Source: a virus
Taxonomy: Duplodnaviria > Heunggongvirae > Uroviricota > Caudoviricetes
DNA: 39,964 nt
IMG/VR virus record: IMGVR_UViG_2711768042_000003
Strand: one strand, 5' to 3'
The notes beneath the pieces are model-generated. The model was not told where the DNA came from, did no database searches, and saw only the letters and a program-made list of their open reading frames with translations. The translations under genes were made by a program, and so were the position numbers. Positions 1,535 through 39,964 of the stretch are shown piece after piece (within the stretch, counting starts at the first letter, position 1; every line of letters begins with the position of its first letter).

Positions 1535-4500
1535 TCAGCTGATACTGATGCCTGCGGTGGCTTTCTTCATCACCACAACCAGCAAATCACTGATACTTGC
1601 TGTGGGATACCAACCATTTACCCACCATGCTGATACAGAAAACTCCAGCGTCATGTGACCGCGACCAGCAGGCATATCAATAACACCACTGTAAACCAGC
1701 GTATTATCCAGCGCGGTACGGTTATAAATTTCAGCACCGTTTTTCTTCACTATCAGGCGGCATGACGAATAAGTATCGCTGTTCTCCCGCTCATGTCTGG
1801 CACCGCTGAAAGCCACCGCCGGAATAACAATCTGCCGGTCAAACGGCTGATCGTCATAAACCCTGACGGTAATGGTCCCTGATGGCCACCGCTCCGGTGC
1901 ACGGGAGTCCCGGGGGAAAGCTTTGCCCACCGTTTTAACAATATCGCCTTCAATCTGGTTGGCTGACAGTTTTCCCAGAATCCGGCAGTTCTGATTAATC
2001 GTGACATTGTTGAGCGTCCCGGAGTTCGCATTCACGTTACCGCTGATATCTGCATTTTTCGCCGTCAGCCGCCCGTCCGGTGTCAGGGAAAATGCCGGAG
2101 GATTACCGCCGCTGGTAATGGTGGGAGCCGTCAGGTATTTCAGGAACACTTCGTTCATGAATATCTGATCGCCCTGACCAACAAACATCGGCTTTGTGTT
2201 GCCATTCGCAGGATTAATCATCGCAATCCTGTCCGCCGCCAGCAGCACCTGACTCTGCATACCGTCAGGGGTATTCTCAATACCGGCACCAATACCCGCG
2301 ATATAAAGGCGTCCGTCCTGCATCTGCTGCAGCTTCACAGCCCACATGCTGTTCAGGTTATTATTTGTATCAACCTGAACCTTCTGTATCTGCTGGATTG
2401 CCGCACTCTGGTCTTCCAGTTTCTTATTGACGGTCTGCGTGATTTCATTACTGACATCCGTGATGGACGTTCTGATTTCCGCCAGGTCAGGCGCAAGCTG
2501 ACCGTTATCAATCTGCGTCCACAACTCCTGAGCCAGATGGGTTTTCCCTATCTCTCCTTTGAAAAAATTCAGATAGCCGGATGCATCATCACTCGGCTGG
2601 CCAACAGCCTCCACGAATGCCGATTTGCCAACGGTGTTCACACTGCGGATGTAAAAATAATAATCATGGCCCGGTTTGATATTGATACTGGCGGCTATCC
2701 AGTACAGCGCCGTGCCAAGATAGCGTGCTGTGGTTTCAACCTGCCTGATATCCGCAATCCGCTTTTCCGAGAACCAGAACTCAAACTGTACCGTCGGGTC
2801 ATAAACGGCAAGATGCGGCGTGGCGGTTATCTGAAAATACCCCGGTGTCAGCTCAATCCGCGACGGTGCTGCCGGTGCGGCAATCCGGAACGATACCGAC
2901 GCCGGATCGCCCTGCTGCCCCCAGGCATTTGCCGCCCGGACTGTCAGCCTGTAGTTTCCCAACGCCAGTTGCGTGAAGCGGTATGTGGTTTCCGTCGTCC
3001 GGGCCGTGCTGACCAGCCGCTCACTGCCGTCATCCGCTGCCACGGTCAGGCGAAGCATAAAGCTCACGCCCTTCACCACCTTCGGCGTGTCCCAGCGCGC
3101 CAGTACCTGATATTCCCCGCTGTCTGCGGTGACTTCGGCAGTCAGGTGCTGCACCGCTGGCGGCGTGACACCATTCACCGTGCCACTCTGGTCGCCGTCA
3201 AAGTGCGCCCCGTTATCCACGATGGCCTCTTTCTCCGGCACATGCTGCACGGCGGTGATGGCATACGTGCCGTCGTCGTTCTCACGGATACTCACACAGC
3301 GGAACAGGCGCTGACGCAGCATCGGCAGCTTCAGCCCCCACACGCTGTATTCGGCAACGCCGTCAGGAACACGGCTCACTTTTACCTTCACGCCGTCGGT
3401 GACGGACTGGACCTCCACGCTCACCGGATTACCCTGCCCGTCAACCAGGCTTATCAGCGTGGTGCCGGAGGATGGCAGCGTGATTTCACGGTCGAGCGTC
3501 AGCGTCCGGGTCTGGCTGTTCACCGCCAGCACGCGCCCGCCAATGCTGATCCCCGCATAGTCATCATCGCAGATTTCAATAACATCACCCGGTACATGGC
3601 GCAGCCCTTCTGCACCCACGCTGAAGTCCACGGTCTGCGTTTCCAGCAGTTCCGTTTTAATCAGCCACAGCCCGGCGCGGTGCGCCTGCCCCCGGCTGGT
3701 ACAGCCAAAGGCATCCATTTTCGTGACGTTACGACCGTAACGGGCAATGGCCTGCGTGTCCTCCACAAGCTCTGTTGCCGTTTCCCAGCCGTTATTCGGG
3801 TCAATCCAGTTCACCTCAACGGCATTATGGCGGTCCTTCAGGGAGCTGAAACTGTAGCGGAACGGCGCGCCATCATCCGGCATCACCACATTACTGCGGT
3901 TATAGGTCCACACCTTATCCGACGGCCGGTCCTGCACGAACGTCAGCGTCTGCCCGTTCCATACCGGCATACAGCGCATCGCCGAGCAGAAATCACTGAG
4001 CACATCCCACGCCTTGCGCTGTGTGGTCAGGTACGCATTACAGGTGATGCGCGGCTCCGTGCCACCAAAACCATCCGGCACCGACTGGTCGCAATACTGT
4101 CCGATGACATACAGCGCCCATTTGTCCACATCCGCCGCACCAAGACGTTTCCCCATGCCGTAGCGCGGATGGGTCAGCATATCCCACAGACACCATGCCA
4201 TGTTGTTGCTGTATGCCGGTTTAAACGTTCCGTCCCAGATACCGCTGTATTGCCGCCTCTGCGGGTTATAGTTCGACGGCACCTGCAGAATGCGCCCGCG
4301 AAGATGATAATTACGACTCACCTGCTGGCTGCCGAACTGTTCCGAGTCCACCTGCACGCCGACCAGTGCCGTGTTCGGGTAGCACTGTTTCACATCGATG
4401 ATTTCGGTGTATGACGACCAGAGCGTTTTGTTCTGCAGCTGGTCTGTGGTGCTGTCCGGTGTCATCCTGCGCATCCGGATATTGAACGGGCGCGGAGGCA

Positions 4501-28312: not shown

Positions 28313-28731
28313 CGCACCACCTCATGAAAATTTCCCTGATAAAACGCCAGTACACGCTGCATAACTTCGCTCTTCCGACAATCGTGACAAATCATGTTCA
28401 AGCGCCTGTCGTAACGACGTATTTCTCCGTCAGGTAATGACCAGATAAGGTCTGGATCAACCACTACCGATTTCTTCGGCTTTACTCTTGATAGTTTTTT
28501 ACGGGCGTTTTGCCAGTCCTTGCGTGCTTGTGCAGACAGAAATATCCCGGAGCCAGAGATATACAAATCACCACTGGCAGCAAGCTCTCTTGATAAACGA
28601 CTAACAGCACACCGGCTAATACCAGTTTCATCCGCAAGTTGCCTAACCGTTCCTCGTCCATTCAGGCGCACGAGTTCCACAATTTGTTTATTCAGTTCTT
28701 CCCTCTGTTCTGGTGTAAAAGCCTTTGCCAT
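28309..28731 (-). CDS. HTH-containing hypothetical protein
   Basis: 140 aa, N-terminal HTH-like segment VRQLADETGISRCAVSRLSRELA. Confidence 0.55.
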   Translation of the reverse strand: MAKAFTPEQREELNKQIVELVRLNGRGTVRQLADETGISRCAVSRLSRELAASGDLYISGSGIFLSAQARKDWQNARKKLSRVKPKKSVVVDPDLIWSLPDGEIRRYDRRLNMICHDCRKSEVMQRVLAFYQGNFHEVVR

Positions 28732-31645: not shown

Positions 31646-34600
31646 ATGACATTAAACGATTTCTATGCGGATCGCTTTGGCAGCGATCCGTTCTCGCTAA
31701 TTGAAGCAGCACGGGATGAACTAACCGAGCTGGCACAGATGGCTGGTATCAACTGGTCTGCCTGTTCCGACAACATCCAACTCAACCCTCGCGGGGGTGT
31801 TGAGCGTTACTCTTCATACAATAAAACATCTCCAGAAGCTCTCGAAAAGAGCCTCAAAGGACGCGTAGAAATTTACTCCCGGCTGGAACACAGCAAAGGG
31901 ATTGATTACCCGTTCATTAACTTCGTCCATAAAGGCAGCGATGCTGGCTCATGGAGCGGTTTCTCCTTCCTGTTTTCTGAATATCGCCGTGAGCAACAAC
32001 GGAATAATGCGACCGTGGTCGCACAACCGGAAGAAGAACGGGCAAGAATAGAACGTCAGGCCGAAGCACGTCGTCGCCGTGAAGAACAAAAACGAATTAA
32101 TGACCTGAAAAACAACCAAATGGACCATGAACGTTTGCTGGGATGGCTGGCATTCCACAGCGCGTGGGAACATGCTCCTGCAGAAGACGGCTCATGGCCA
32201 TATGCGATTAAAAAAGGTATTCGTGACGTTTTTAATTCGTGTGATGTGCGTCGCGTGACCAGTCACGACAGCGCAAAATGGAGCAGGGGGCCAACCACGT
32301 ATATGGCTATCCCTCTGGCTCACCTGGACGGTCGTTACGATGGTCGTATTGTGGGTTGGCAGCGAATCGACAAACAAGGTGGAAAATACCAGACCAGCGC
32401 CGTAACCAGCGGCGATTTCGTCGGTGCCTGCTTTGTTATCGGTGAGCTAAAAGGGGCGCAAAACATCGCTGTTACAGAAGGTTTTGCTACTGGTGCATCC
32501 ATCTGGCTTGCCACGAAAAAAGATAAACGCTTTGACGCTGTGGTTGTCGCTGTATCCGCTAATAACATGGTTCATGTTGTGGAACAACTGGTAAACATGT
32601 ACCCGGCGGCAAAAATCACCTGCGCACTGGATAATGACCGGAAATCAGCCACAGAAGGAAAAGGGAATACCGGCCTGCGGACTGGCTATGAAATCTTATC
32701 GAAATTCAACGATGTCCGCTGCGTCTATCCAACTTTTGAAGACGATCCGCAAATGGAGTGCAGTGACTTCAACGACCTGCACAAACTGCGTGGACTTCGT
32801 GAAACAGCACGTCAACTGTTTGCAACTGCAAACCGCCTGAAAACCGGCACTGATTTGCTATCTCTGACGCTCAACCGCCTGAAGACAATTAAGCGGGATA
32901 ACCGTCGTACTTTTGCCAAAGAGCTGCTGAGAGCGGTGGATATTGGCATGCTAACCTGTCCGGTTCCTAACAGTCCGTCAGACTTATTTAACATGTTCTG
33001 CATCGTTCTGCGTGAAATGGGGCTGGAAAATATCTATCGCGCTACGGTAAAAGACCACATTGCCCGTCGCCTGAATAAAAAGTGCCGTATTGCCCAGGCT
33101 CCGCGCTCATTCAGCGAACGCATAACTGATCCCAATAAACGTCCTCAACATATCACCTATAAGCGTTTTGAAACTTCGGTAATGACCGATGACGTCCTGA
33201 AGTATGTGCAATCACTACAGGGGATAGTCATCGTTCGTGCTGGTATGGGTTCCGGCAAATCTACTGGATTGTTACGACCTTTAATGCATAGCTCAGAACG
33301 TGGTATCTCTGTTGCTCACCGTGTTTCCCTTATTGGTGGCCTGTGGGAAATGATGACAGAAGGAAAAGGTGTAAAAGCCGATATCCTGCACTATCAGGAC
33401 CCTGGCTATCAGGAAATGGCTCCATACGCCAGTAAACTGACCATCTGCATAAACTCGATTGTTAAAAACTGCTGGCAACCGTTGATGCGCCAGCACGACT
33501 ATTTTGGCTTTGACGAGGCCACGCAAGGGCTACGTGCCGTTCTTTCCGGTCGGGCTATGGAAAACCCGGTGGCTGTATTCAATACGTTAATCGACGCGCT
33601 GGCCAGAACGGAACAACACCCAATAATGGTGGATGCTGATGCGAACGATCTGCTGGTTGACCTGGCTGAACTGGCTATGAAACGCCGTGAAGAACTAGGT
33701 TTACCGGCATGGCTGCAGATCCACGTAATTGAATTACCTGTTGATGTTCGCAACCGCGAAACAGGTGAGCCAATCCGGGTTTTTTATACAGAAAAAGATC
33801 GCATTATGACCGAGGTGGTGAAAGCTGTATCGGATGGCGAAAAAATCATGTTGGCCACCGACAGCTCCACCTTTGCAGAAGATGTGACAGCCACCCTGAG
33901 AATGCATTTTCCTGGTAAGAAATTTCTGTGTGTAAACCAGAAAAACAAACCAGAGCCAGAAGTTGAAGCATTTACCAATCAACCGAAAAAGATGGTCAAA
34001 AAATACGACGGCCTGATTTATAGCCCGTCTATTTCATCCGGTGTGTCGATTGAGCAAAAACATTTTGACCGTCATTTCGGCATGTTCTGTGGTGAAGTTG
34101 TACCCAGCGACGCAGTGCAAATGCTACGCCGCGACCGTACAGCAAAAGAATTTATTATCGGCTTTGATAAAGCTCGCGCAAAACGTGAAACTGACCCGCA
34201 AAAAATAGAACGAGCATTCGCCCAGGCATTGCTTGCTACCGCAGGCATGAACGGTGAACTGACGGATGTCGTTTTCGATGGCGACCGTATATCAATGGGG
34301 GTGGCCAATACCGACTTTACCAGGATGAAAATTAAAGCAGCCGCAATTGAAGCGTCTGCGCGTAACGACTACGCCAGCAACATGATCTGCATCATGCACA
34401 GCGACGGTTATAAGGTATCGCCGCTGGCCACCGATTATGCTGCGAATGATATCGGTAAAGATCTGCGTAAAGAAGCGCGGGATATTGTGTGGGAACAGAC
34501 ACTGGATCTGCATCTCAATACAGAAACTCCACAAGAATCAGAGCGTGAAGAACTGCTAAAAAAACGCGCGCTGACGCTTGAAGAACAAGCAAAACTTGTC

Positions 34601-35641
34601 CGCTGGGATATTGAGAACGAACTGAAACTACCGGTTGAAGAAGGCACGCTGAAATTCTATTTCGATGGTGCTCGAGACAAAGTTCGCCGCTATGAAACAA
34701 TGCTTTTAGATGAGGTAACAGCTCGTCGTTACGACCGGGAAGAAGCAGCCATCAATTTTACCTACGCATACCGTCAGGCGGGACAGTGGCAATATTTTGT
34801 AGTGACCGCGATGACTCGCGAGCAGGCTGATGATGTCTTTAAAACTAAATTCCCTGGAATAATCGACTACAAGGTAAAAGCTACTCCTACTGTTGAAGTC
34901 GGGGCGCGCGGTTTCTATGCGCTTAAATCAGCAACTCTCCGGCAGTACTTTATCGACTGCGGTATCAACCCTGAGACTATGACCGGCGAGGCGACTCAGG
35001 AGCGTCTCAAATTCGCTCGAGATAACCTCATGACAGCCGAACGCCGTGACCTGTTGAATAACGTTCTGCACATTGGTGGTTTTATGACGCCAAAAGGGAA
35101 GCCTAAAGTGCCGGAAGCGTTGTTTAAAAACATTTGCGACTCTCTTGGCCTTAAAACAGGTAAACGTCGCGGCAGAGACGGCGATAAGCGTCCAACCTTG
35201 CGTTTTGTTGAGCCTGAATCAGCGGCATTTATGCTGGATATTCTTGTTCAGCGTCAGAAAGATGGCCTAACCCTAAAAACGCGTAAAGCCGAGAAGACAG
35301 CCATCGAAATGGATCGCGATTTGGATCTCAATATATATATGGATGATAAAACGCGATCCACAAACGAGCAGGTTCAAAACGCCCCTCATTCAGTAATTTC
35401 TGAGGCTTTGGCCGTATTGCCGGTGGCTGTTCCTGAGTCCTGGGCGATGAGTGCGCTTTCCGGTGAGGAGCTGGCCACTATGTCATCATGGTCATCAGCC
35501 AGCATAGCTATGACGTTTGCATCTCTGTATCTCACAGAGTTCATGGATCACTTGTCCAGCAATGAATTGCGGCGGTTACGAGAATACATTACCGGGAATA
35601 GCTCATGCAGCTACGAAGAGCAGGGCGCTTTCTATGGGTAA
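31646..35641 (+). CDS. repA: multidomain replication protein RepA (primase Toprim plus P-loop helicase)
   Basis: 1331 aa; Toprim motifs (VTEGFATG, DND); Walker A GMGSGKST; Walker B FGFDEA. Confidence 0.9.
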   Translation: MTLNDFYADRFGSDPFSLIEAARDELTELAQMAGINWSACSDNIQLNPRGGVERYSSYNKTSPEALEKSLKGRVEIYSRLEHSKGIDYPFINFVHKGSDAGSWSGFSFLFSEYRREQQRNNATVVAQPEEERARIERQAEARRRREEQKRINDLKNNQMDHERLLGWLAFHSAWEHAPAEDGSWPYAIKKGIRDVFNSCDVRRVTSHDSAKWSRGPTTYMAIPLAHLDGRYDGRIVGWQRIDKQGGKYQTSAVTSGDFVGACFVIGELKGAQNIAVTEGFATGASIWLATKKDKRFDAVVVAVSANNMVHVVEQLVNMYPAAKITCALDNDRKSATEGKGNTGLRTGYEILSKFNDVRCVYPTFEDDPQMECSDFNDLHKLRGLRETARQLFATANRLKTGTDLLSLTLNRLKTIKRDNRRTFAKELLRAVDIGMLTCPVPNSPSDLFNMFCIVLREMGLENIYRATVKDHIARRLNKKCRIAQAPRSFSERITDPNKRPQHITYKRFETSVMTDDVLKYVQSLQGIVIVRAGMGSGKSTGLLRPLMHSSERGISVAHRVSLIGGLWEMMTEGKGVKADILHYQDPGYQEMAPYASKLTICINSIVKNCWQPLMRQHDYFGFDEATQGLRAVLSGRAMENPVAVFNTLIDALARTEQHPIMVDADANDLLVDLAELAMKRREELGLPAWLQIHVIELPVDVRNRETGEPIRVFYTEKDRIMTEVVKAVSDGEKIMLATDSSTFAEDVTATLRMHFPGKKFLCVNQKNKPEPEVEAFTNQPKKMVKKYDGLIYSPSISSGVSIEQKHFDRHFGMFCGEVVPSDAVQMLRRDRTAKEFIIGFDKARAKRETDPQKIERAFAQALLATAGMNGELTDVVFDGDRISMGVANTDFTRMKIKAAAIEASARNDYASNMICIMHSDGYKVSPLATDYAANDIGKDLRKEARDIVWEQTLDLHLNTETPQESEREELLKKRALTLEEQAKLVRWDIENELKLPVEEGTLKFYFDGARDKVRRYETMLLDEVTARRYDREEAAINFTYAYRQAGQWQYFVVTAMTREQADDVFKTKFPGIIDYKVKATPTVEVGARGFYALKSATLRQYFIDCGINPETMTGEATQERLKFARDNLMTAERRDLLNNVLHIGGFMTPKGKPKVPEALFKNICDSLGLKTGKRRGRDGDKRPTLRFVEPESAAFMLDILVQRQKDGLTLKTRKAEKTAIEMDRDLDLNIYMDDKTRSTNEQVQNAPHSVISEALAVLPVAVPESWAMSALSGEELATMSSWSSASIAMTFASLYLTEFMDHLSSNELRRLREYITGNSSCSYEEQGAFYG
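32008..32025. promoter_or_regulatory. centromere-like palindrome inside repA (outer base of one arm mismatched)
   Basis: ATGCGACC-GT-GGTCGCAC, encodes NATVVAQ in the RepA frame. Confidence 0.45.
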
Positions 35642-36554: not shown

Positions 36555-36581
36555 GTTGTGATAACTGTTACAGGAGATAAA

Positions 36582-36869
36582 GTGAAGAGTTTTATTTTGG
36601 TTTTATGTTTTGCCTTTTCTGCTGCGGTTTATGCCCAGGAAGATAGCATTTCTGTTATTAACTCATCAGCGGAGCTTGCATGTAAAAATAATCCCGATGC
36701 TGCATCAAAAGAATCATGCAAAGAACTGCTCCTTTCGACGGCTGCTTTTGCTTCTGAAAATGCGAAATTTTATTCAGCCTTCTGTCGCGGCTATGTTAAG
36801 GAAGAAGATAAAGAAAAATGTGATGATGCCGGTAAGTTAGTTAGGTATTTCCACTCTCTTAATCCGTAA
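36582..36869 (+). CDS. small secreted protein (signal peptide)
   Basis: GTG start with AGGAG RBS; signal peptide VKSFILVLCFAFSAAVYA-QE; four Cys in the mature part; ATG at 36558 is the alternative start. Confidence 0.5.
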   Translation: MKSFILVLCFAFSAAVYAQEDSISVINSSAELACKNNPDAASKESCKELLLSTAAFASENAKFYSAFCRGYVKEEDKEKCDDAGKLVRYFHSLNP

Positions 36870-36970
36870 TGGCCTTTGATTAACGATCAACTTCTGATCA
36901 CTCGTTCAAGCAAACTATAAAAACACCTGTCCCCGTGACTGGTCACGGGGTAAAATGTCTTTGCAAATTA

Positions 36971-37083
36971 TTGACGTGTGCGTCGTTTTGGAGGTAAAGT
37001 CACCTCGCTGCGGTAAATCCCGCAGTCGGGACTTCGCAATCCTGGCAAAACGAAGCGCACAACACGCGCCAGCGTGTTTTTTT
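36971..37083 (+). ncRNA. candidate small regulatory RNA (c4/CI-like) with promoter and terminator
   Basis: Possible -35 TTGACG, 18 bp, -10 TAAAGT; stem-loop 37008-37025; terminator ACACGC-GCCA-GCGTGT plus U-run at 37062-37083; no long ORF. Confidence 0.35.
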
Positions 37084-37249
37084 GTGTGTATAGACCTGCG
37101 CATATCCGAATTATGGTGGCTCAGGTGGGGCTGACTTCGGTCGGGCCGGTTTCTTCGTTTACCGGTATTGCGAACCCCGCCTGGGCTACCACCAATAAAG
37201 AGATTCGCAACTCTGGTGGTAGCACGACCAATAAAACGGAGTGCATACC

Positions 37250-37414
37250 ATGTTCAAATTCAAATTTGCGGCAGTCGTTCGCACAGACAAAAAGTCCCAC
37301 ATTCATCATCTTTCCACTATCGCGTCATCTGAACGGGAAGCTCGTCGCCAGTTCGCCAGCCGGTTTGTCCTGGTATTGTCTGCCCGTATTCCGGTGCGCG
37401 AGGTGGCTGCATGA
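37250..37414 (+). CDS. small ORF (54 aa), first of three translationally coupled ORFs
   Basis: GGAG RBS; sequence MFKFKFAAVVRTDKK; stop overlaps the next start as ATGA. Confidence 0.45.
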   Translation: MFKFKFAAVVRTDKKSHIHHLSTIASSEREARRQFASRFVLVLSARIPVREVAA

Positions 37415-37644
37415 ATCAGGTAAAAATGAACACTGTTGGCCTGCTGGAATCGTTGGATGAACGTCTGGCTCAGGTCTATGCGCTCGTATCATCAGCCCAT
37501 CGGACAGTCTCCAGTTGTGAGGCGTCGATTTACCTCTCAGAGGCTGGAAAACTTCTGCAGATTGCGTGTGAGTTAACGCATGAAGCACAGGGATATTCTG
37601 CGTCTCTCTCGTCGCACTTGCTGCGCGATAAGGAGGCTGAATGA
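37411..37644 (+). CDS. hypothetical protein (77 aa)
   Basis: ATGA overlaps at both ends. Confidence 0.5.
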   Translation: MNQVKMNTVGLLESLDERLAQVYALVSSAHRTVSSCEASIYLSEAGKLLQIACELTHEAQGYSASLSSHLLRDKEAE

Positions 37645-37805
37645 GCGCGTTAGCAGTCTTTTCCTTTCAGGAAGAGCATCAGGTTCGTGTAGTGATGATC
37701 AACGGCGAACCGTGGTTTGTTGCATCTGATGTGTGTATGGCGGCGGGTATTGATTCTACGGCTATCAGAAAGTTGGATGAGGACGAAAAGGGGCAGGCGA
37801 GGTAG
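37641..37805 (+). CDS. short Bro-N-like ORF (antirepressor N-domain fragment)
   Basis: AAGGAGG RBS; HQVRVVMINGEPWFVASDVCMAAG resembles the start of Bro-N/antirepressor domains but the ORF is only 54 aa. Confidence 0.45.
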   Translation: MSALAVFSFQEEHQVRVVMINGEPWFVASDVCMAAGIDSTAIRKLDEDEKGQAR

Positions 37806-37815
37806 ACCACACAAC

Positions 37816-37839
37816 AAGGCACCGATAATTCGGTGCCTT
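37816..37839. terminator. hairpin between convergent operons
   Basis: Stem AAGGCACCG/CGGTGCCTT with loop ATAATT; weak U-tract. Confidence 0.35.
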
Positions 37840-37850
37840 TACCGTATGCT

Positions 37851-39764
37851 TTATCCGAAATATGTCAGCCATGCTAACTGCATTGCTGATATAGGGCTGT
37901 TTGCACTGCCGGACCAAGCATAATTCTGGCCATTATAATGAAATTCAACAACGTATGATCCATCACCAATATTTCTCACAGGCTTAAATACCGGCTTAGA
38001 TACAGGTGAAGAAGGCGCGGGCGGTTGCTGTTCTTCTACGCTCTCTTCCTCTTCCTCTTCCTCTTCCTCTTCCTCTATCTCTATCTCAATTTCGTCGTCA
38101 TCCAGATCGTCATCCTCTGATAATTCATCCGTCTGTTCAGGTATTGCTTCCAGCTCTTCTTCGTCAGGCATAACGATTTCTGGAGAATCTATTTTCAGCT
38201 GCCATTGTCCATTTTCGCCAACAAATTGCCCCAGAGCATCAGCAGCAAATTCTAGGTATCGACTAATCATTGTAGGGCTAAATTTGAATGCTCTTAGAGT
38301 GCTGTTCGTGATTTTTATAGAGGGGTCCTGCTCTACCAGCTGCTTAACTGTGTTATGCAGACGAACTCCGGCATCTCCTCTGGCGAATCCTGGCATTTCG
38401 TCATCAAGCTGCTGCAATGCTTCCAGCCTGGTATTTTCGTTTCCAGTATTTGGCCTCCATGTCTTTGAGAAGTTGGCCAGCTTGAATTGCTTATAGTGTA
38501 ATTGAGTGTTTTCATCGTCATGGCCTAAAATTTCCATAAAGAAAACATCCTCATCTACGTTTTTCCAACGAGGATCTACGCGGAAAAACATTTCATACGC
38601 AATACGGGCATAAATAGCACGACTATCTTTATAAACACGGCGGTCATCTTTGAAAAATGATTTAACCCACGGGTTAAAAGCCTTTGCTAATATGGCATTA
38701 ATCCGTCCGTTTTCAGAGCGTGTGTCGTTATCTCCATAACCTTTAACGACATCATCAAAATCAGATGCTGCTGGGCATGAGCGAAGTACATTTATTAAAT
38801 AAACAAATGTTTTTGCTTCGCATAATGTATATATTTTTCTGGTTATATCATCAGAAGTTCTTTTTTTTGCTTGGCCTAAAAAATCAACGGTATACTTACC
38901 AGAAACAGTAAATGTACCTTGATACATAATCTCAATCATTCGTCTTCCTGACAATGCAGCAAGTGCAAATGCCAAAGGAGCCATACCTGAACGAGTGTTT
39001 AGATTATTTAATGTAGCAGGGCTATTTATAATATCGTAAATAGCTTGCATATATTTGGGGTAATCAATGACCACCACGTTACGTTTCTTATTGTGCAGAA
39101 CGTCCGCCCATCGTTGCTGGATAGATGCGCGTTCGGCAGGGCTTAGTTGAAGATGATAGAGAATCTCATGGTTAACTTTTAGCTGATTCAACTCCTCAAG
39201 TAAGGCAGATCCTTGCTGTAGTAATTTATATAAATAATCGCGCTTATCTTTCCAGTTATCGCTAGTTAAATCAGAAATGGCGAATTGCCACTCTTTATAT
39301 TTATTTGATAATTTTAATAACTTATTATGATTTTTGTTATCGCCAATTCTGATATTAGATAAATCTTCTGATAGAGGGAGAATTAATTTTAATTTTGCCT
39401 GTAAAGCTGACATTCTCTGGCGAATATCGGCAGCAGGTAGAGAAAGCCATGATAATAGCTCCTCATTATATAAAGGATACTTTTCAGATAGGCGATGTAT
39501 ATTTTTTTCAAAGCTATGATGAAGTTTATCATCAAACCGTTTTCTGGCCCTGCTCATATAGGCATTGAATGTGTTCGCTGTAATTCTTTTTTCTAATCCT
39601 TTACCCCTAAACTTTCGCTTGTCATTAAATAATGCATTTTTAAATTTTAATGCAACAGCCTTTATTTTTTTTGTTTTCTCCCCTTGAGGACGGTCAGAGT
39701 TATCTATTGACTCAACATCGCTAACAAGTGAGTTTATTAATTCACCGATTTTTACTTTGCTCAT
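37851..39764 (-). CDS. telN: protelomerase (telomere resolvase)
   Basis: 637 aa; N-terminus MSKVKIGELIN and long conserved blocks match N15 TelN as I recall it; AGGAGAGG RBS. Confidence 0.95.
   Translation of the reverse strand: MSKVKIGELINSLVSDVESIDNSDRPQGEKTKKIKAVALKFKNALFNDKRKFRGKGLEKRITANTFNAYMSRARKRFDDKLHHSFEKNIHRLSEKYPLYNEELLSWLSLPAADIRQRMSALQAKLKLILPLSEDLSNIRIGDNKNHNKLLKLSNKYKEWQFAISDLTSDNWKDKRDYLYKLLQQGSALLEELNQLKVNHEILYHLQLSPAERASIQQRWADVLHNKKRNVVVIDYPKYMQAIYDIINSPATLNNLNTRSGMAPLAFALAALSGRRMIEIMYQGTFTVSGKYTVDFLGQAKKRTSDDITRKIYTLCEAKTFVYLINVLRSCPAASDFDDVVKGYGDNDTRSENGRINAILAKAFNPWVKSFFKDDRRVYKDSRAIYARIAYEMFFRVDPRWKNVDEDVFFMEILGHDDENTQLHYKQFKLANFSKTWRPNTGNENTRLEALQQLDDEMPGFARGDAGVRLHNTVKQLVEQDPSIKITNSTLRAFKFSPTMISRYLEFAADALGQFVGENGQWQLKIDSPEIVMPDEEELEAIPEQTDELSEDDDLDDDEIEIEIEEEEEEEEEEESVEEQQPPAPSSPVSKPVFKPVRNIGDGSYVVEFHYNGQNYAWSGSANSPISAMQLAWLTYFG
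38045..38074. repeat. hexanucleotide repeat (CTTCCT)x5 inside telN
   Basis: Five perfect tandem units; encodes part of the poly-Glu linker on the minus strand. Confidence 0.8.
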
Positions 39765-39928: not shown

Positions 39929-39964
39929 ATCAGCACATAATTCCCCATTATACGCGCGTATAAT
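39929..39964. other. telomere-resolution palindrome (telO-like); window ends 9 nt past its centre
   Basis: ATCAGCACATAATTCCCCATTATACGCG|CGTATAAT; perfect palindrome centred between 39955 and 39956. Confidence 0.7.

Follow-up and report, generated by a model that had tools for sequence, protein, structure and literature searches.

Organization of the locus

The window, by which we mean the whole stretch of 39,964 nucleotides analysed here, carries three small consecutive genes on the plus strand, of 54, 77 and 54 amino acids, which an earlier note on this DNA had correctly described as open reading frames joined by ATGA overlaps. The first of them, icd (37250-37414), encodes an Icd-like host cell division inhibitor that is recognized by the NCBIfam model NF033153 (phage_ICD_like) with 67 bits against a cut-off of 25; its product is 94% identical to Icd of N15, 87% identical to Gp29 of phiKO2, which is annotated as Icd-like, and 50% identical to the product of an ORF in the cI region of P4. 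The second gene, antA (37411-37644), is coupled to icd by the overlap at 37411-37414 and encodes an antirepressor homologue with 63% identity to N15 gp31 (E = 1e-29), which matches phrog_6301 with 125 bits and phrog_10889, annotated 'anti-repressor', with 67.6 bits. In phiKO2, the annotation of its counterpart, Gp28, notes a similarity to the N15 AntA antirepressor. The third gene, antB' (37641-37805), overlaps antA at 37641-37644 and encodes a 54-residue remnant of AntB. Judging by homology, AntA would act against the CB prophage repressor and Icd against cell division.

Upstream of icd, the stretch 36870-37249 contains mechanical ORFs alone and forms the gene-free gap that had been noticed before. 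The order of the elements is that of N15, with the repA block followed by Pa, a leader, the cA RNA, icd, antA, antB and the convergent telN, and synteny extends over N15 genes 37 to 29 and phiKO2 genes 35 to 26. Switches of this kind are known, in which a small processed antisense RNA silences a cell division inhibitor together with an antirepressor. The anti-immunity system immA of N15, consisting of Pa, CA RNA, icd, antA and antB, was reportedly described by Ravin, Svarchevsky and Deho in 1999. One later account gives immA as an operon of antA, icd and antB (PMC4488713), and another places the N15 antirepressor under negative control by the small RNA CA (PMC10732415).

A search of the whole 40-kb window with the Rfam models returned just two matches, C4 and isrK, both above their gathering scores and both within this locus. 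The isrK match adjoins the C4 match in all 11 relatives examined as well as in P4, although in one relative (L007) the isrK match, clipped by the end of the record, falls below the cut-off. Structurally similar systems that combine an IsrK-like with a C4-like element are used by P4, P1, P7 and N15 (PMC3632133).

Promoter-like site, leader RNA and terminator

A promoter-like site, the equivalent of Pa, lies on the plus strand at 36971-37000 and consists of the -35 hexamer TTGACG (36971-36976), an 18-nt spacer and the -10 hexamer TAAAGT (36995-37000). With 9 of 12 positions matching the sigma-70 consensus, it is the sole plus-strand candidate between 36500 and 38000, in line with the possible promoter proposed earlier. 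Across 10 homologous modules, the TTG of the -35 hexamer never varies, nor do the T, A and final T of the -10 hexamer. Transcription is predicted to start near 37007, the position at which the match to the Rfam isrK model begins.

From this position onwards the plus strand would give rise to an IsrK/seqA-type leader RNA (37007-37083), composed of a first stem-loop, SL1 (37007-37026), a second one, SL2 (37027-37044), whose loop holds a sequence termed b1, a single-stranded segment termed a1, and an intrinsic terminator. The isrK model (RF01394) matches 37007-37082 over its full length (model positions 1-77 of 77) with 52.8 bits against a gathering score of 50, a small margin of 2.8 bits; 10 relatives score between 54.9 and 67.0 bits, and the clipped sequence of L007 reaches 38.7. 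The Rfam model c4-a1b1 stays below its threshold here (24.8 against 46.7). The leader folds with -27.3 kcal/mol (z = -2.29), and an RNAalifold analysis found compensatory changes in five of the six pairs of SL1. The terminator (37061-37083, plus strand) has a 7-bp stem with four G-C pairs (37061-37067 with 37072-37078), the loop GCCA and a T-run extending to 37083, and confirms the intrinsic terminator recognized in the earlier note. A terminator is also annotated at the homologous site in N15 (28413-28435) and in phiKO2; the pairs of the core stem are conserved, while some outer pairs are broken in two relatives. Promoter-like site and terminator, both conserved, are spaced as would be expected for a primary transcript of the IsrK/seqA type. 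The RNA of about 77 nt that had been postulated earlier agrees end to end with an established RNA family; what did not hold is the function given to it, as the RNA is a leader carrying the b1 target and very probably not the repressor RNA.

Further upstream, 20 bp before the -35 hexamer, the palindrome CCCCGTGAC-TGG-GTCACGGGG (36931-36951) can be read from the sequence. Its core, CGTGAC-TGG-GTCAC, is kept in N15, YDC107_1 and Kpn74 as well as in phiKO2, where an A stands in for its last G. The palindrome may serve to bind a protein, or it may insulate the genes upstream of it or terminate their transcription. The outer bases of its arms differ between the elements without compensation, which speaks against an RNA hairpin, and neither its reading as the 'stem-loop' of the earlier note nor that as a terminator gained support, its outer arms showing no covariation and no T-run following it.

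A C4-family antisense RNA between terminator and icd

The second Rfam match, to RF01695, spans 37109-37196 on the plus strand and covers the model completely (positions 1-87 of 87) with 82.3 bits against a gathering score of 45, identifying a C4-family antisense RNA homologous to CA of N15, c4 of P1 and P7 and CI of P4. A 17-bp closing helix (37114-37130 with 37175-37191) encloses hairpin 1 (37131-37144) and hairpin 2 (37145-37166), and the two recognition elements of the family are found in their usual places, a' in the loop of the second hairpin and b' ahead of the 3' half of the closing helix. The RNA folds with -48.1 kcal/mol (z = -5.56), its minimum-free-energy structure being identical to the centroid structure, and of the 28 pairs predicted for it by RNAalifold from 11 sequences, 13 show compensatory changes. 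RNase P cleaves C4 at a GGW site, and the RNA works via a' and b' (PMC5320573); in P1, P4 and N15 the C4-type RNA is viewed as the repressor (PMC3632133, PMC10732415). The corresponding processing determinants are present in the window, where a GGU (37115-37117) opens the closing helix and the sequence ACCA (37191-37194) stands behind it. We predict a mature species of approximately 37115-37194, reaching from the RNase P site to the tRNA-like 3' ACCA.

The same stretch has often been read as protein-coding. In the N15 record (GenBank U63086) an old CDS named 'cA secondary immunity repressor' overlaps the RNA, further CDSs are annotated on the homologous stretch in P4 (X51522), phiKO2 and RefSeq plasmids, some under the name 'ash family protein', and mechanical ORFs of 59 and 128 amino acids exist in the window. 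That 37074-37249 encodes a protein instead of an RNA is nevertheless hardly credible: the changes in this stretch keep base pairs, not codons, the icd frame is closed upstream by a TAG at 37220, RefSeq flags the ORF as partial in a plasmid that has the same sequence as the window, and the determinants of N15 and P4 are described in the literature as small RNAs. Public records matching the element leave the RNA genes without annotation or call them 'hypothetical', 'ash family' or 'cA repressor' proteins. The main practical value of the present analysis lies in annotation, as a guide to the correct reading of such RNA genes.

Recognition elements covary among related elements

In the C4-type RNA, the recognition element a' (CUUCGUUU, 37153-37160) occupies the loop of hairpin 2, and b' (AUUGCGAA, 37167-37174) forms the 8-nt single strand between hairpin 2 and the closing helix. 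Sequences complementary to both lie on the plus strand on either side of this RNA. Upstream, in the leader, the target b1 (TTCGCAAT, 37033-37040) in the SL2 loop is complementary to b', and the single-stranded target a1 (AAACGAAG, 37048-37055), 5 nt upstream of the terminator stem, is complementary to a'. Downstream, the target b2 (UUCGCAA, 37204-37210) sits in the loop, 8 nt in size, of a small hairpin that closely follows the C4-type RNA (37199-37214), and the target a2 (AAACGGAG, 37234-37241) contains the Shine-Dalgarno sequence of icd, GGAG (37238-37241), 8 nt before the ATG. The pairing of a2 with a' comprises 8 bp including one G.U pair, and in the relatives, too, a2 coincides in part with the Shine-Dalgarno region ahead of the first ORF. 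The offset of b2 is similarly constant, all relatives having it 2-7 nt past the point where the C4 match ends, and b2 covaries with its partner.

A single 8-nt complement between stretches of 77 nt and about 165 nt is expected about 0.17 times by chance, so the complementary octamer pair in the window is not significant on its own and its significance comes from covariation in the relatives. We assessed this covariation in an alignment-free manner, searching for the longest complement anywhere and comparing cognate combinations with all derangements, because the columns of a MAFFT alignment were out of register (the SL2 loop of the window is one nucleotide longer, and in distant relatives b2 is not properly aligned). 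Across 12 related elements representing eight specificity types, b1, b' and b2 covary, as do a1, a' and a2. The cognate complementarity sum is 114 for b' and 119 for a', against maxima of 81 and 85, respectively, among 14,833 derangements each. For a1, the longest-complement search yields a cognate match of 8 nt, while non-cognate matches mostly measure 5 nt or less. RNA duplex prediction, a check suggested at the outset, points in the same direction, with the duplex energy of the a'/b' core surpassing 497 of 500 shuffles when paired with the leader and 492 of 500 when paired with the downstream region. The complementarity is conserved in related elements, through compensatory change, so that the lack of conservation named in the earlier note as a ground for refutation is not observed. 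Plasmids about 90% identical to the window bear other b types with all three sites switched, and pCAVP367-48 combines the a' of the window with the b' of phiKO2. The assignment of the flanking sites as predicted partners of a' and b' is supported by this covariation. In silico, b1/b'/b2 and a1/a'/a2 are two three-site sets whose joint evolution amounts to an immunity-specificity code of N15-like plasmid prophages, and the differing codes of closely related E. coli plasmids predict which telomere phages are able, and which unable, to restrain each other's antirepressor.

These results bear on the model put forward in the earlier note, in which the transcript of about 77 nt (37007-37083) is a trans-acting repressor that pairs with the leader of the first ORF at 37167-37174. 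The octamers themselves, TTCGCAAT at 37033-37040 and ATTGCGAA at 37167-37174, are as they were given there, their complementarity is real and covaries, a short RNA is predicted with its promoter and terminator, and the founding member of its family is a stable Hfq-binding sRNA (PMC4825925). However, ATTGCGAA is b' and lies inside a C4/CA/CI-type antisense RNA gene (Rfam, 82.3 bits) rather than in a target leader; it is located about 80 nt upstream of the icd start, within a conserved RNA that has its nearest homologues in the known repressor RNAs of N15, P1 and P4. Pairing at 37167-37174 would leave the ribosome-binding site of icd unmasked, whereas pairing of a' with a2 would mask it, and in Gifsy-1 the short RNA activates and does not repress its target. 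We therefore consider it very improbable that the leader RNA is the repressor. The strongly structured C4-family RNA at 37109-37196, the a1/a'/a2 set and a third occurrence of the octamer core (37204-37210) had been overlooked in the earlier note.

Relation to known immunity systems

Taken together, we read the locus as an immA-type anti-immunity operon of an N15-like telomere (linear plasmid) prophage that is controlled by a processed antisense RNA of the C4/CA family, a reading to which we assign a probability of about 0.85. RNA-based immunity in the manner of P1 c4-icd-ant and P4 CI had been suspected before; the class was right and can be narrowed to N15 immA, but the target had been taken for the regulator.

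With N15 immA the locus shares its position between the repA block and the convergent telN, the place of the terminator, a nucleotide identity of 78% over 706 bp that covers the promoter, leader, RNA, icd and half of antA, and the combination of a C4-family RNA with an isrK-type leader, next to the 94% identical Icd and the 63% identical AntA. It differs in its upstream cargo genes, in AntB (264 amino acids in N15, 54 here) and in both recognition elements: b' is AUUGCGAA here and GUUGAGAA in N15, where C37171 is replaced by A as the single difference, and a' is CUUCGUUU here and CUUCUUGU in N15. As all target sites have changed to match the divergent a' and b', cross-control with N15 is unlikely.

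The published descriptions of P1 and P7 immI (PMC5320573, PMC12197685) agree with the present locus in a C4-family RNA that derives by processing from the leader of the very operon under its control, in a' and b' with flanking complementary sites, in an Icd-type first gene coupled to an antirepressor, and in a specificity set by few nucleotides. Here, in contrast, an intrinsic terminator stands between the first target set and the RNA, and the antirepressor is a small AntA together with a Bro-N protein instead of Ant1/2. According to the summary of PMC5320573, it is b' that occludes the ribosome-binding site in P1, whereas in the window the partner of a' overlaps the Shine-Dalgarno sequence.

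The P4 immunity region (seqA, CI RNA with seqB, and seqC) likewise shows an isrK-type match (60.8 bits) and a C4 match (74.9 bits) followed by the Icd-like ORF with 50% identity, and has target sites upstream and downstream of the RNA. Leader and RNA are spaced 107 nt apart in P4 and 26 nt apart here, and the genes controlled in P4 are the replication genes epsilon and alpha, with no antirepressor. The isrK locus of Gifsy-1 (IsrK, STnc1160/orf45, anrP) has in common with the window a short terminated leader RNA and a read-through mRNA, a stable processed RNA downstream of the terminator (all of them predicted in our case), a translationally coupled antirepressor and a middle hairpin of the leader that is complementary to a downstream segment. 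It differs in that the C4-like stretch is read as the translated orf45 and the short RNA as a trans-activator; an Icd homologue is unreported there, while here icd is the first coupled gene and the C4 stretch is without a conserved ORF. The locus is an ordinary addition to the known systems of the P1, P4 and N15 type, set apart in minor ways by its hypervariable specificity cassette and by an operon that lacks a complete AntB, and the established picture of these systems is unaltered by any of our results.

A model for the control of icd and antA

In the model that we propose, transcription would start near 37007 from the promoter at 36971-37000, as suggested by its consensus match and conservation, and many transcripts would end at the terminator (37061-37083), releasing a leader RNA of about 77 nt with b1 in a hairpin loop and a1 in a single strand, for which the Gifsy-1 homologues provide an experimental precedent. 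Read-through transcripts would carry the C4-type RNA, from which, following P1/P7 and P4, RNase P cleavage before G37115 and 3' trimming that halts at ACCA would generate a stable species of about 77-80 nt. The a' loop and the b' strand of this RNA would pair with a1 and b1 on nascent leaders, next to the terminator, and also with a2 and b2 on the read-through mRNA; covariation argues for both pairings, and their presumed consequences follow the related phages. On the nascent leader, pairing would favour termination as in the P4/N15 model. The CA RNA of N15 is said to act by promoting termination, as the analogy with P4 would also have it. For P4, CI RNA is described as arising by processing and bringing about premature termination (PMC4825925). 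A search of the leader for an antiterminator that pairing of a' with a1 could disrupt gave no convincing candidate, the sole one being a 4-bp GCGC/GCGC helix (37055-37058 with 37066-37069); this helix is too weak against the 7-bp terminator stem, and the termination step hence remains an analogy.

On the read-through mRNA, icd would stay untranslated because a2 comprises its Shine-Dalgarno sequence, and since antA and antB' start within ATGA overlaps, they would depend on translation of icd and be silenced along with it. Where the RNA is absent or outcompeted, as might happen upon fresh infection or with an excess of decoy, Icd would stop division and AntA would inactivate the prophage repressor, as is known for N15; the auxiliary antirepressor AntB is here cut to 54 amino acids.

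A further layer of control, compatible with this antisense model, would be a two-RNA switch of the IsrK type, in which the leader RNA acts in trans as an anti-antisense RNA or activator on b' and a' of the C4-type segment, either free or within the long transcript; by titrating the repressor or changing the fold of the mRNA, this pairing would make icd-antA translatable. In Gifsy-1, the short IsrK was shown experimentally to bind the read-through transcript over the C4-like STnc1160 and to turn on the coupled orf45-anrP, and the window shares this layout of leader, C4 and coupled ORFs. The segment UGGUGGUAGC (37214-37223) moreover has two possible pairing partners, the start region of icd and the 3' strand of the C4 helix, which give alternative structures. 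On the other hand, the case for N15-like phages is drawn from Gifsy-1, the authors of the Gifsy-1 study failed to show STnc1160 as a termination factor, and the alternative helix covaries weakly, its core CCACC/GGUGG being nearly invariant. Such a switch is possible, if on the unlikely side. The short leader RNA may still have a role in trans, as its Gifsy-1 counterpart is a stable species that activates in trans (PMC4825925). As a tentative and rather doubtful extension, an abundant leader RNA could act on the C4-type RNA in trans, as a decoy or activator in the manner of IsrK in Gifsy-1, with the a and b pairs as separately exchangeable cassettes that change far more quickly than other parts of the phage and give rise to new anti-immunity specificities, and with a minimal icd-antA output, without a complete AntB, being enough. 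The alternative helix UGGUGGUAGC/GCUACCACCA was rejected as a feature in view of its weak covariation; we keep it as a remark and base no claim on it.

The AntB remnant and the end of the operon

AntB, annotated as an auxiliary antirepressor, is 258-264 amino acids long in YDC107_1, N15 and phiKO2. The antB' product matches positions 1-41 of 96 of the Pfam Bro-N model with 30.7 bits (cut-off 25.6), which bears out the resemblance to the N-terminus of such domains that had been pointed out for the third ORF. Just the first half of this domain remains. The alignment of antB' with full-length AntB ends at residue 51, and the complete AntB of the N15 operon is not found here. Relative to YDC107_1, a deletion of 735 bp (L003, 2409-3143) has removed AntB residues 52-258, leaving a junction at approximately 37790-37792.

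This loss of four-fifths of the length of a Bro-N antirepressor gene, together with five synonymous and three non-synonymous codon differences in antB' among the shortened lineages, a ratio that gives no clear signal of constraint, could be taken to mean that the locus is a decaying, non-functional remnant. We regard this as improbable. The annotation as antirepressor falls on AntA, AntB being auxiliary, and PY54 is without antB. Both icd and antA are still under purifying selection: against three relatives, icd shows 9 synonymous differences and 1 non-synonymous one in total, and the synonymous to non-synonymous counts for antA are 14:3, 14:4 and 19:6. The three-site complementarity has been upheld through specificity switches among plasmids that all bear the deletion. 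The deletion is common to several E. coli plasmid lineages, an identical 54-residue protein is annotated in other E. coli plasmids, and the cut-down form occurs in at least 13 of them. A complete AntB may not be essential to the immA-type family of N15, and the output of the switch may differ from that of N15, AntB being cut.

Beyond the deletion, the region of a hairpin (GGCACCG-ATAATT-CGGTGCC, 37818-37837) read from the sequence between the convergent antB' and telN has been kept. The hairpin is probably a bidirectional terminator, and a putative bidirectional terminator is annotated at the equivalent place in phiKO2.

An immA-type locus between repA and telN

The window holds an N15-like telomere phage present as a linear plasmid, in which gene order follows that of N15 genes 37 to 29: four small genes separate repA (31646-35641) from the locus studied here, and the convergent telN (37851-39764) comes next. 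The telomere palindrome makes up its final bases. Since the sequence stops inside this palindrome (39930-39964, …CCCATTATACGCGCGTATAAT, with CGCG at the centre) and extends about 10 nt beyond the end of the PhiR46_1 record, in which telL is annotated over the first 22 nt of the palindrome, it represents the prophage as a linear plasmid, sequenced as far as the hairpin or slightly through it. Over 36870-37850 the window is identical to the Escherichia phage PhiR46_1 (100%) and to several E. coli plasmids of ~46 kb, with 89% identity to YDC107_1 and 78% to the N15 immA region. The element belongs to the immA kind, immA being the N15 operon of antA, icd and antB (PMC4488713), but differs from it in carrying its own recognition code and in lacking most of AntB.

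A C4-type RNA follows a short leader RNA

An earlier note had placed a possible promoter, an intrinsic terminator and a candidate ~77-nt RNA upstream of the first ORF, with one octamer of this RNA complementary to the ORF's leader. The sole promoter-like site on the + strand (TTGACG, 18-nt spacer, TAAAGT; 36971-37000), the terminator (37061-37083) and both octamers (37033-37040 and 37167-37174) are indeed found at the positions given. The candidate short RNA is an IsrK/seqA-type leader (Rfam isrK, RF01394, 37007-37082; 52.8 bits, cut-off 50), and the supposed ORF leader is a C4-type RNA gene (C4 antisense RNA, RF01695, 37109-37196; 82.3 bits, cut-off 45). These are the only two matches above gathering score in an Rfam scan of the whole 40-kb window; the c4-a1b1 target motif matches at 36994-37048 below threshold. 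Repression by the short leader RNA is unlikely, as the octamer taken for its target sits within the repressor-type RNA, far from the icd start.

The C4-type RNA is predicted to fold into a 17-bp closing helix enclosing two hairpins (-48.1 kcal/mol, z = -5.56). Hairpin 2 and the closing helix are joined by an 8-nt single strand made up entirely of the recognition element b' (37167-37174, AUUGCGAA), whose leader target b1 (37033-37040) lies within the loop of SL2, a hairpin of the leader. The earlier note missed a third copy of the octamer core, b2 (UUCGCAA, 37204-37210), in the loop of a small hairpin directly after the C4-type RNA, as well as a second set of pairings: element a' (37153-37160, CUUCGUUU), the hairpin-2 loop, is complementary to a1 (37048-37055, AAACGAAG), 5 nt upstream of the terminator stem, and pairs with one G.U to a2 (37234-37241, AAACGGAG), which includes the icd Shine-Dalgarno sequence.

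Just upstream of the -35 hexamer of the promoter-like site, the counterpart of N15 Pa, lies a conserved palindrome core (CGTGAC-TGG-GTCAC, 36931-36951). As there is no covariation in its outer arms, it looks like a putative protein-binding site. A CTGATCAG-GTT-CTGATCAG repeat with two GATC sites within it is found further upstream in N15, YDC107_1 and phiKO2; the window counterpart is degenerate (CGATCAACTTCTGATCAC, 36893-36912).

Recognition sites co-vary as two independent specificities

As about 0.17 complements of 8 nt are expected by chance in stretches of this size (our own arithmetic), the octamer complementarity alone is weak and derives its meaning from comparison with relatives. We compared the module in N15, YDC107_1, phiKO2, Kpn74, PY54, Aeromonas phiARM81ld, an Stx2a phage, a P88-like phage and P13771, adding two E. 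coli plasmids that share 90-92% identity with the window. In P4 and in all the relatives retrieved, a C4 match is adjoined by an isrK match, the latter falling below cut-off in one record (L007), where it is cut by the record end. The complementarity proposed earlier is clearly conserved: b' occurs in eight versions, with a matching change in b1 and b2 every time, and the a' loop and both its partners co-vary likewise. In an alignment-free score, the cognate sum is 114 for b' against a mean of 63.6 and a maximum of 81 for mismatched assignments (n=14,833), and 119 for a' against a maximum of 85. The two types assort independently, pCAVP367-48 combining the a' of the window with the b' of phiKO2/PY54. 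Three closely related E. coli plasmid forms, the window among them, vary at 118 columns over 920 bp, and 88 of these columns belong to the 250-bp RNA module (36991-37238); promoter, palindrome and ORFs are nearly identical between the window and its relatives L014 and L015. The specificity cassette, hypervariable and made of two independently assorting parts, is a result worth keeping.

The substitutions also preserve base pairs, with compensatory changes at 13 of 28 pairs of the C4-type RNA across 11 homologues; this argues against the region being protein-coding, as does the stop codon that closes the icd frame at 37220. Protein CDSs are annotated over the leader and C4 RNA region in four fetched records (L002 413-715, L015 402-572, L016 2244-2366, L017 449-865), with the product names 'cA secondary immunity repressor', 'ash family protein' and 'cI gene product'. 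Such entries are a legacy of older annotation, the literature describing an RNA determinant, and it is worthwhile to correct protein annotations placed on top of an RNA gene. Among the matches listed, a C4 antisense RNA is annotated in only one phage record, LC710660.1.

The operon encodes an Icd-like protein, AntA and a truncated AntB

The three ORFs (37250-37414, 37411-37644 and 37641-37805) are coupled by ATGA overlaps, as had been noted. By sequence similarity, ORF1 encodes a cell-division inhibitor of the Icd-like type (NCBIfam NF033153, 67 bits; 94% identity to N15) and ORF2 is AntA, with 63% identity to N15 gp31, antirepressor PHROG matches and a phiKO2 homologue annotated as resembling the N15 AntA antirepressor. 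ORF3, antB', aligns to the first 41 positions of Pfam Bro-N, bearing out the resemblance seen earlier, and consists of residues 1-51 of the auxiliary antirepressor AntB plus three other residues. A 735-bp deletion relative to YDC107_1 (positions 2409-3143 of its record L003), with GGG microhomology at the junction (37790-37792), took away residues 52-258 together with the beginning of a small ORF further downstream. The short form occurs in at least 13 E. coli plasmids, full-length antB being rarer in that collection, and the identical 54-aa product (WP_001542490.1) is annotated in other E. coli plasmids, among them a lineage with no more than 92% identity over the locus, so that the truncation must be old and is tolerated. 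Two observations speak against decay of the locus as a whole: icd and antA are under selection, synonymous differences far outnumbering non-synonymous ones, and the three-site complementarity is maintained. A naturally occurring operon without complete AntB is likewise worth recording.

In YDC107_1 (CP025712.1), a second match to the locus lies at about 40012-40173, ~6 kb from the syntenic immA, and includes an icd copy whose protein is 100% identical to the Icd of the window; the match may reflect duplication of the immA-like module or the presence of a second one.

A model for repression by the C4-type RNA

CA, the C4-type RNA of N15, reportedly enhances termination, in line with the P4 model. 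In the most likely mechanism, transcription from Pa would yield mostly the short leader, and read-through transcripts would give rise to the C4-type RNA, which RNase P would cut before GGU at 37115, by analogy with P1/P7; its 3' end bears a tRNA-like ACCA. Through a' and b', the mature RNA would pair with the leader beside the terminator, and also with the mRNA at b2 and the icd ribosome-binding site, turning off icd and, via the ATGA couplings, antA and antB'. No convincing antiterminator was found at the locus. By analogy, the mode of action would resemble that of P1 immI and P4 immunity, and P4 has the same order of isrK, C4 and Icd-like ORF. Published work is in keeping with this frame: CA negatively regulates the N15 antirepressor (PMC10732415), and in the arrangement of IsrK-like and C4-like RNAs common to P4, P1, P7 and N15 the C4-like RNA is regarded as the main repressor (PMC3632133).

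Compatible with repression by the C4-type RNA, the short RNA might activate translation of the read-through transcript in trans, as was found experimentally in Gifsy-1 (PMC4825925), whose isrK locus shares its layout with our element. The segment 37214-37223 (UGGUGGUAGC) is a perfect complement of GCUACCACCA (37185-37194), which forms the 3' strand of the closing helix in the C4-type RNA; for the processed mRNA, it is predicted to pair as well with CAUACCAUG (37244-37252) in the icd start region. These alternative pairings could form a structural switch that would permit such activation; covariation in relatives is weak here because the core is invariant.

Genes flanking the locus

The ORF directly upstream (36558-36869, 103 aa) has a hydrophobic, signal-peptide-like N-terminus. 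PhiR46_1 annotates it as 'Spackle exclusion protein', and its PHROG match is phrog_26765 (unknown function). The corresponding position in Kpn74 is taken by a pore-forming protein of colicin-like type, which gives the site the look of a variable cargo slot adjoining immA. On the other side, the C-terminal part of TelN contains an acidic run (EEEEEEEEEE and D/E-rich repeats; 38040-38110, - strand), coded by a simple repeat that is CTC/TTC-rich as read on the + strand.
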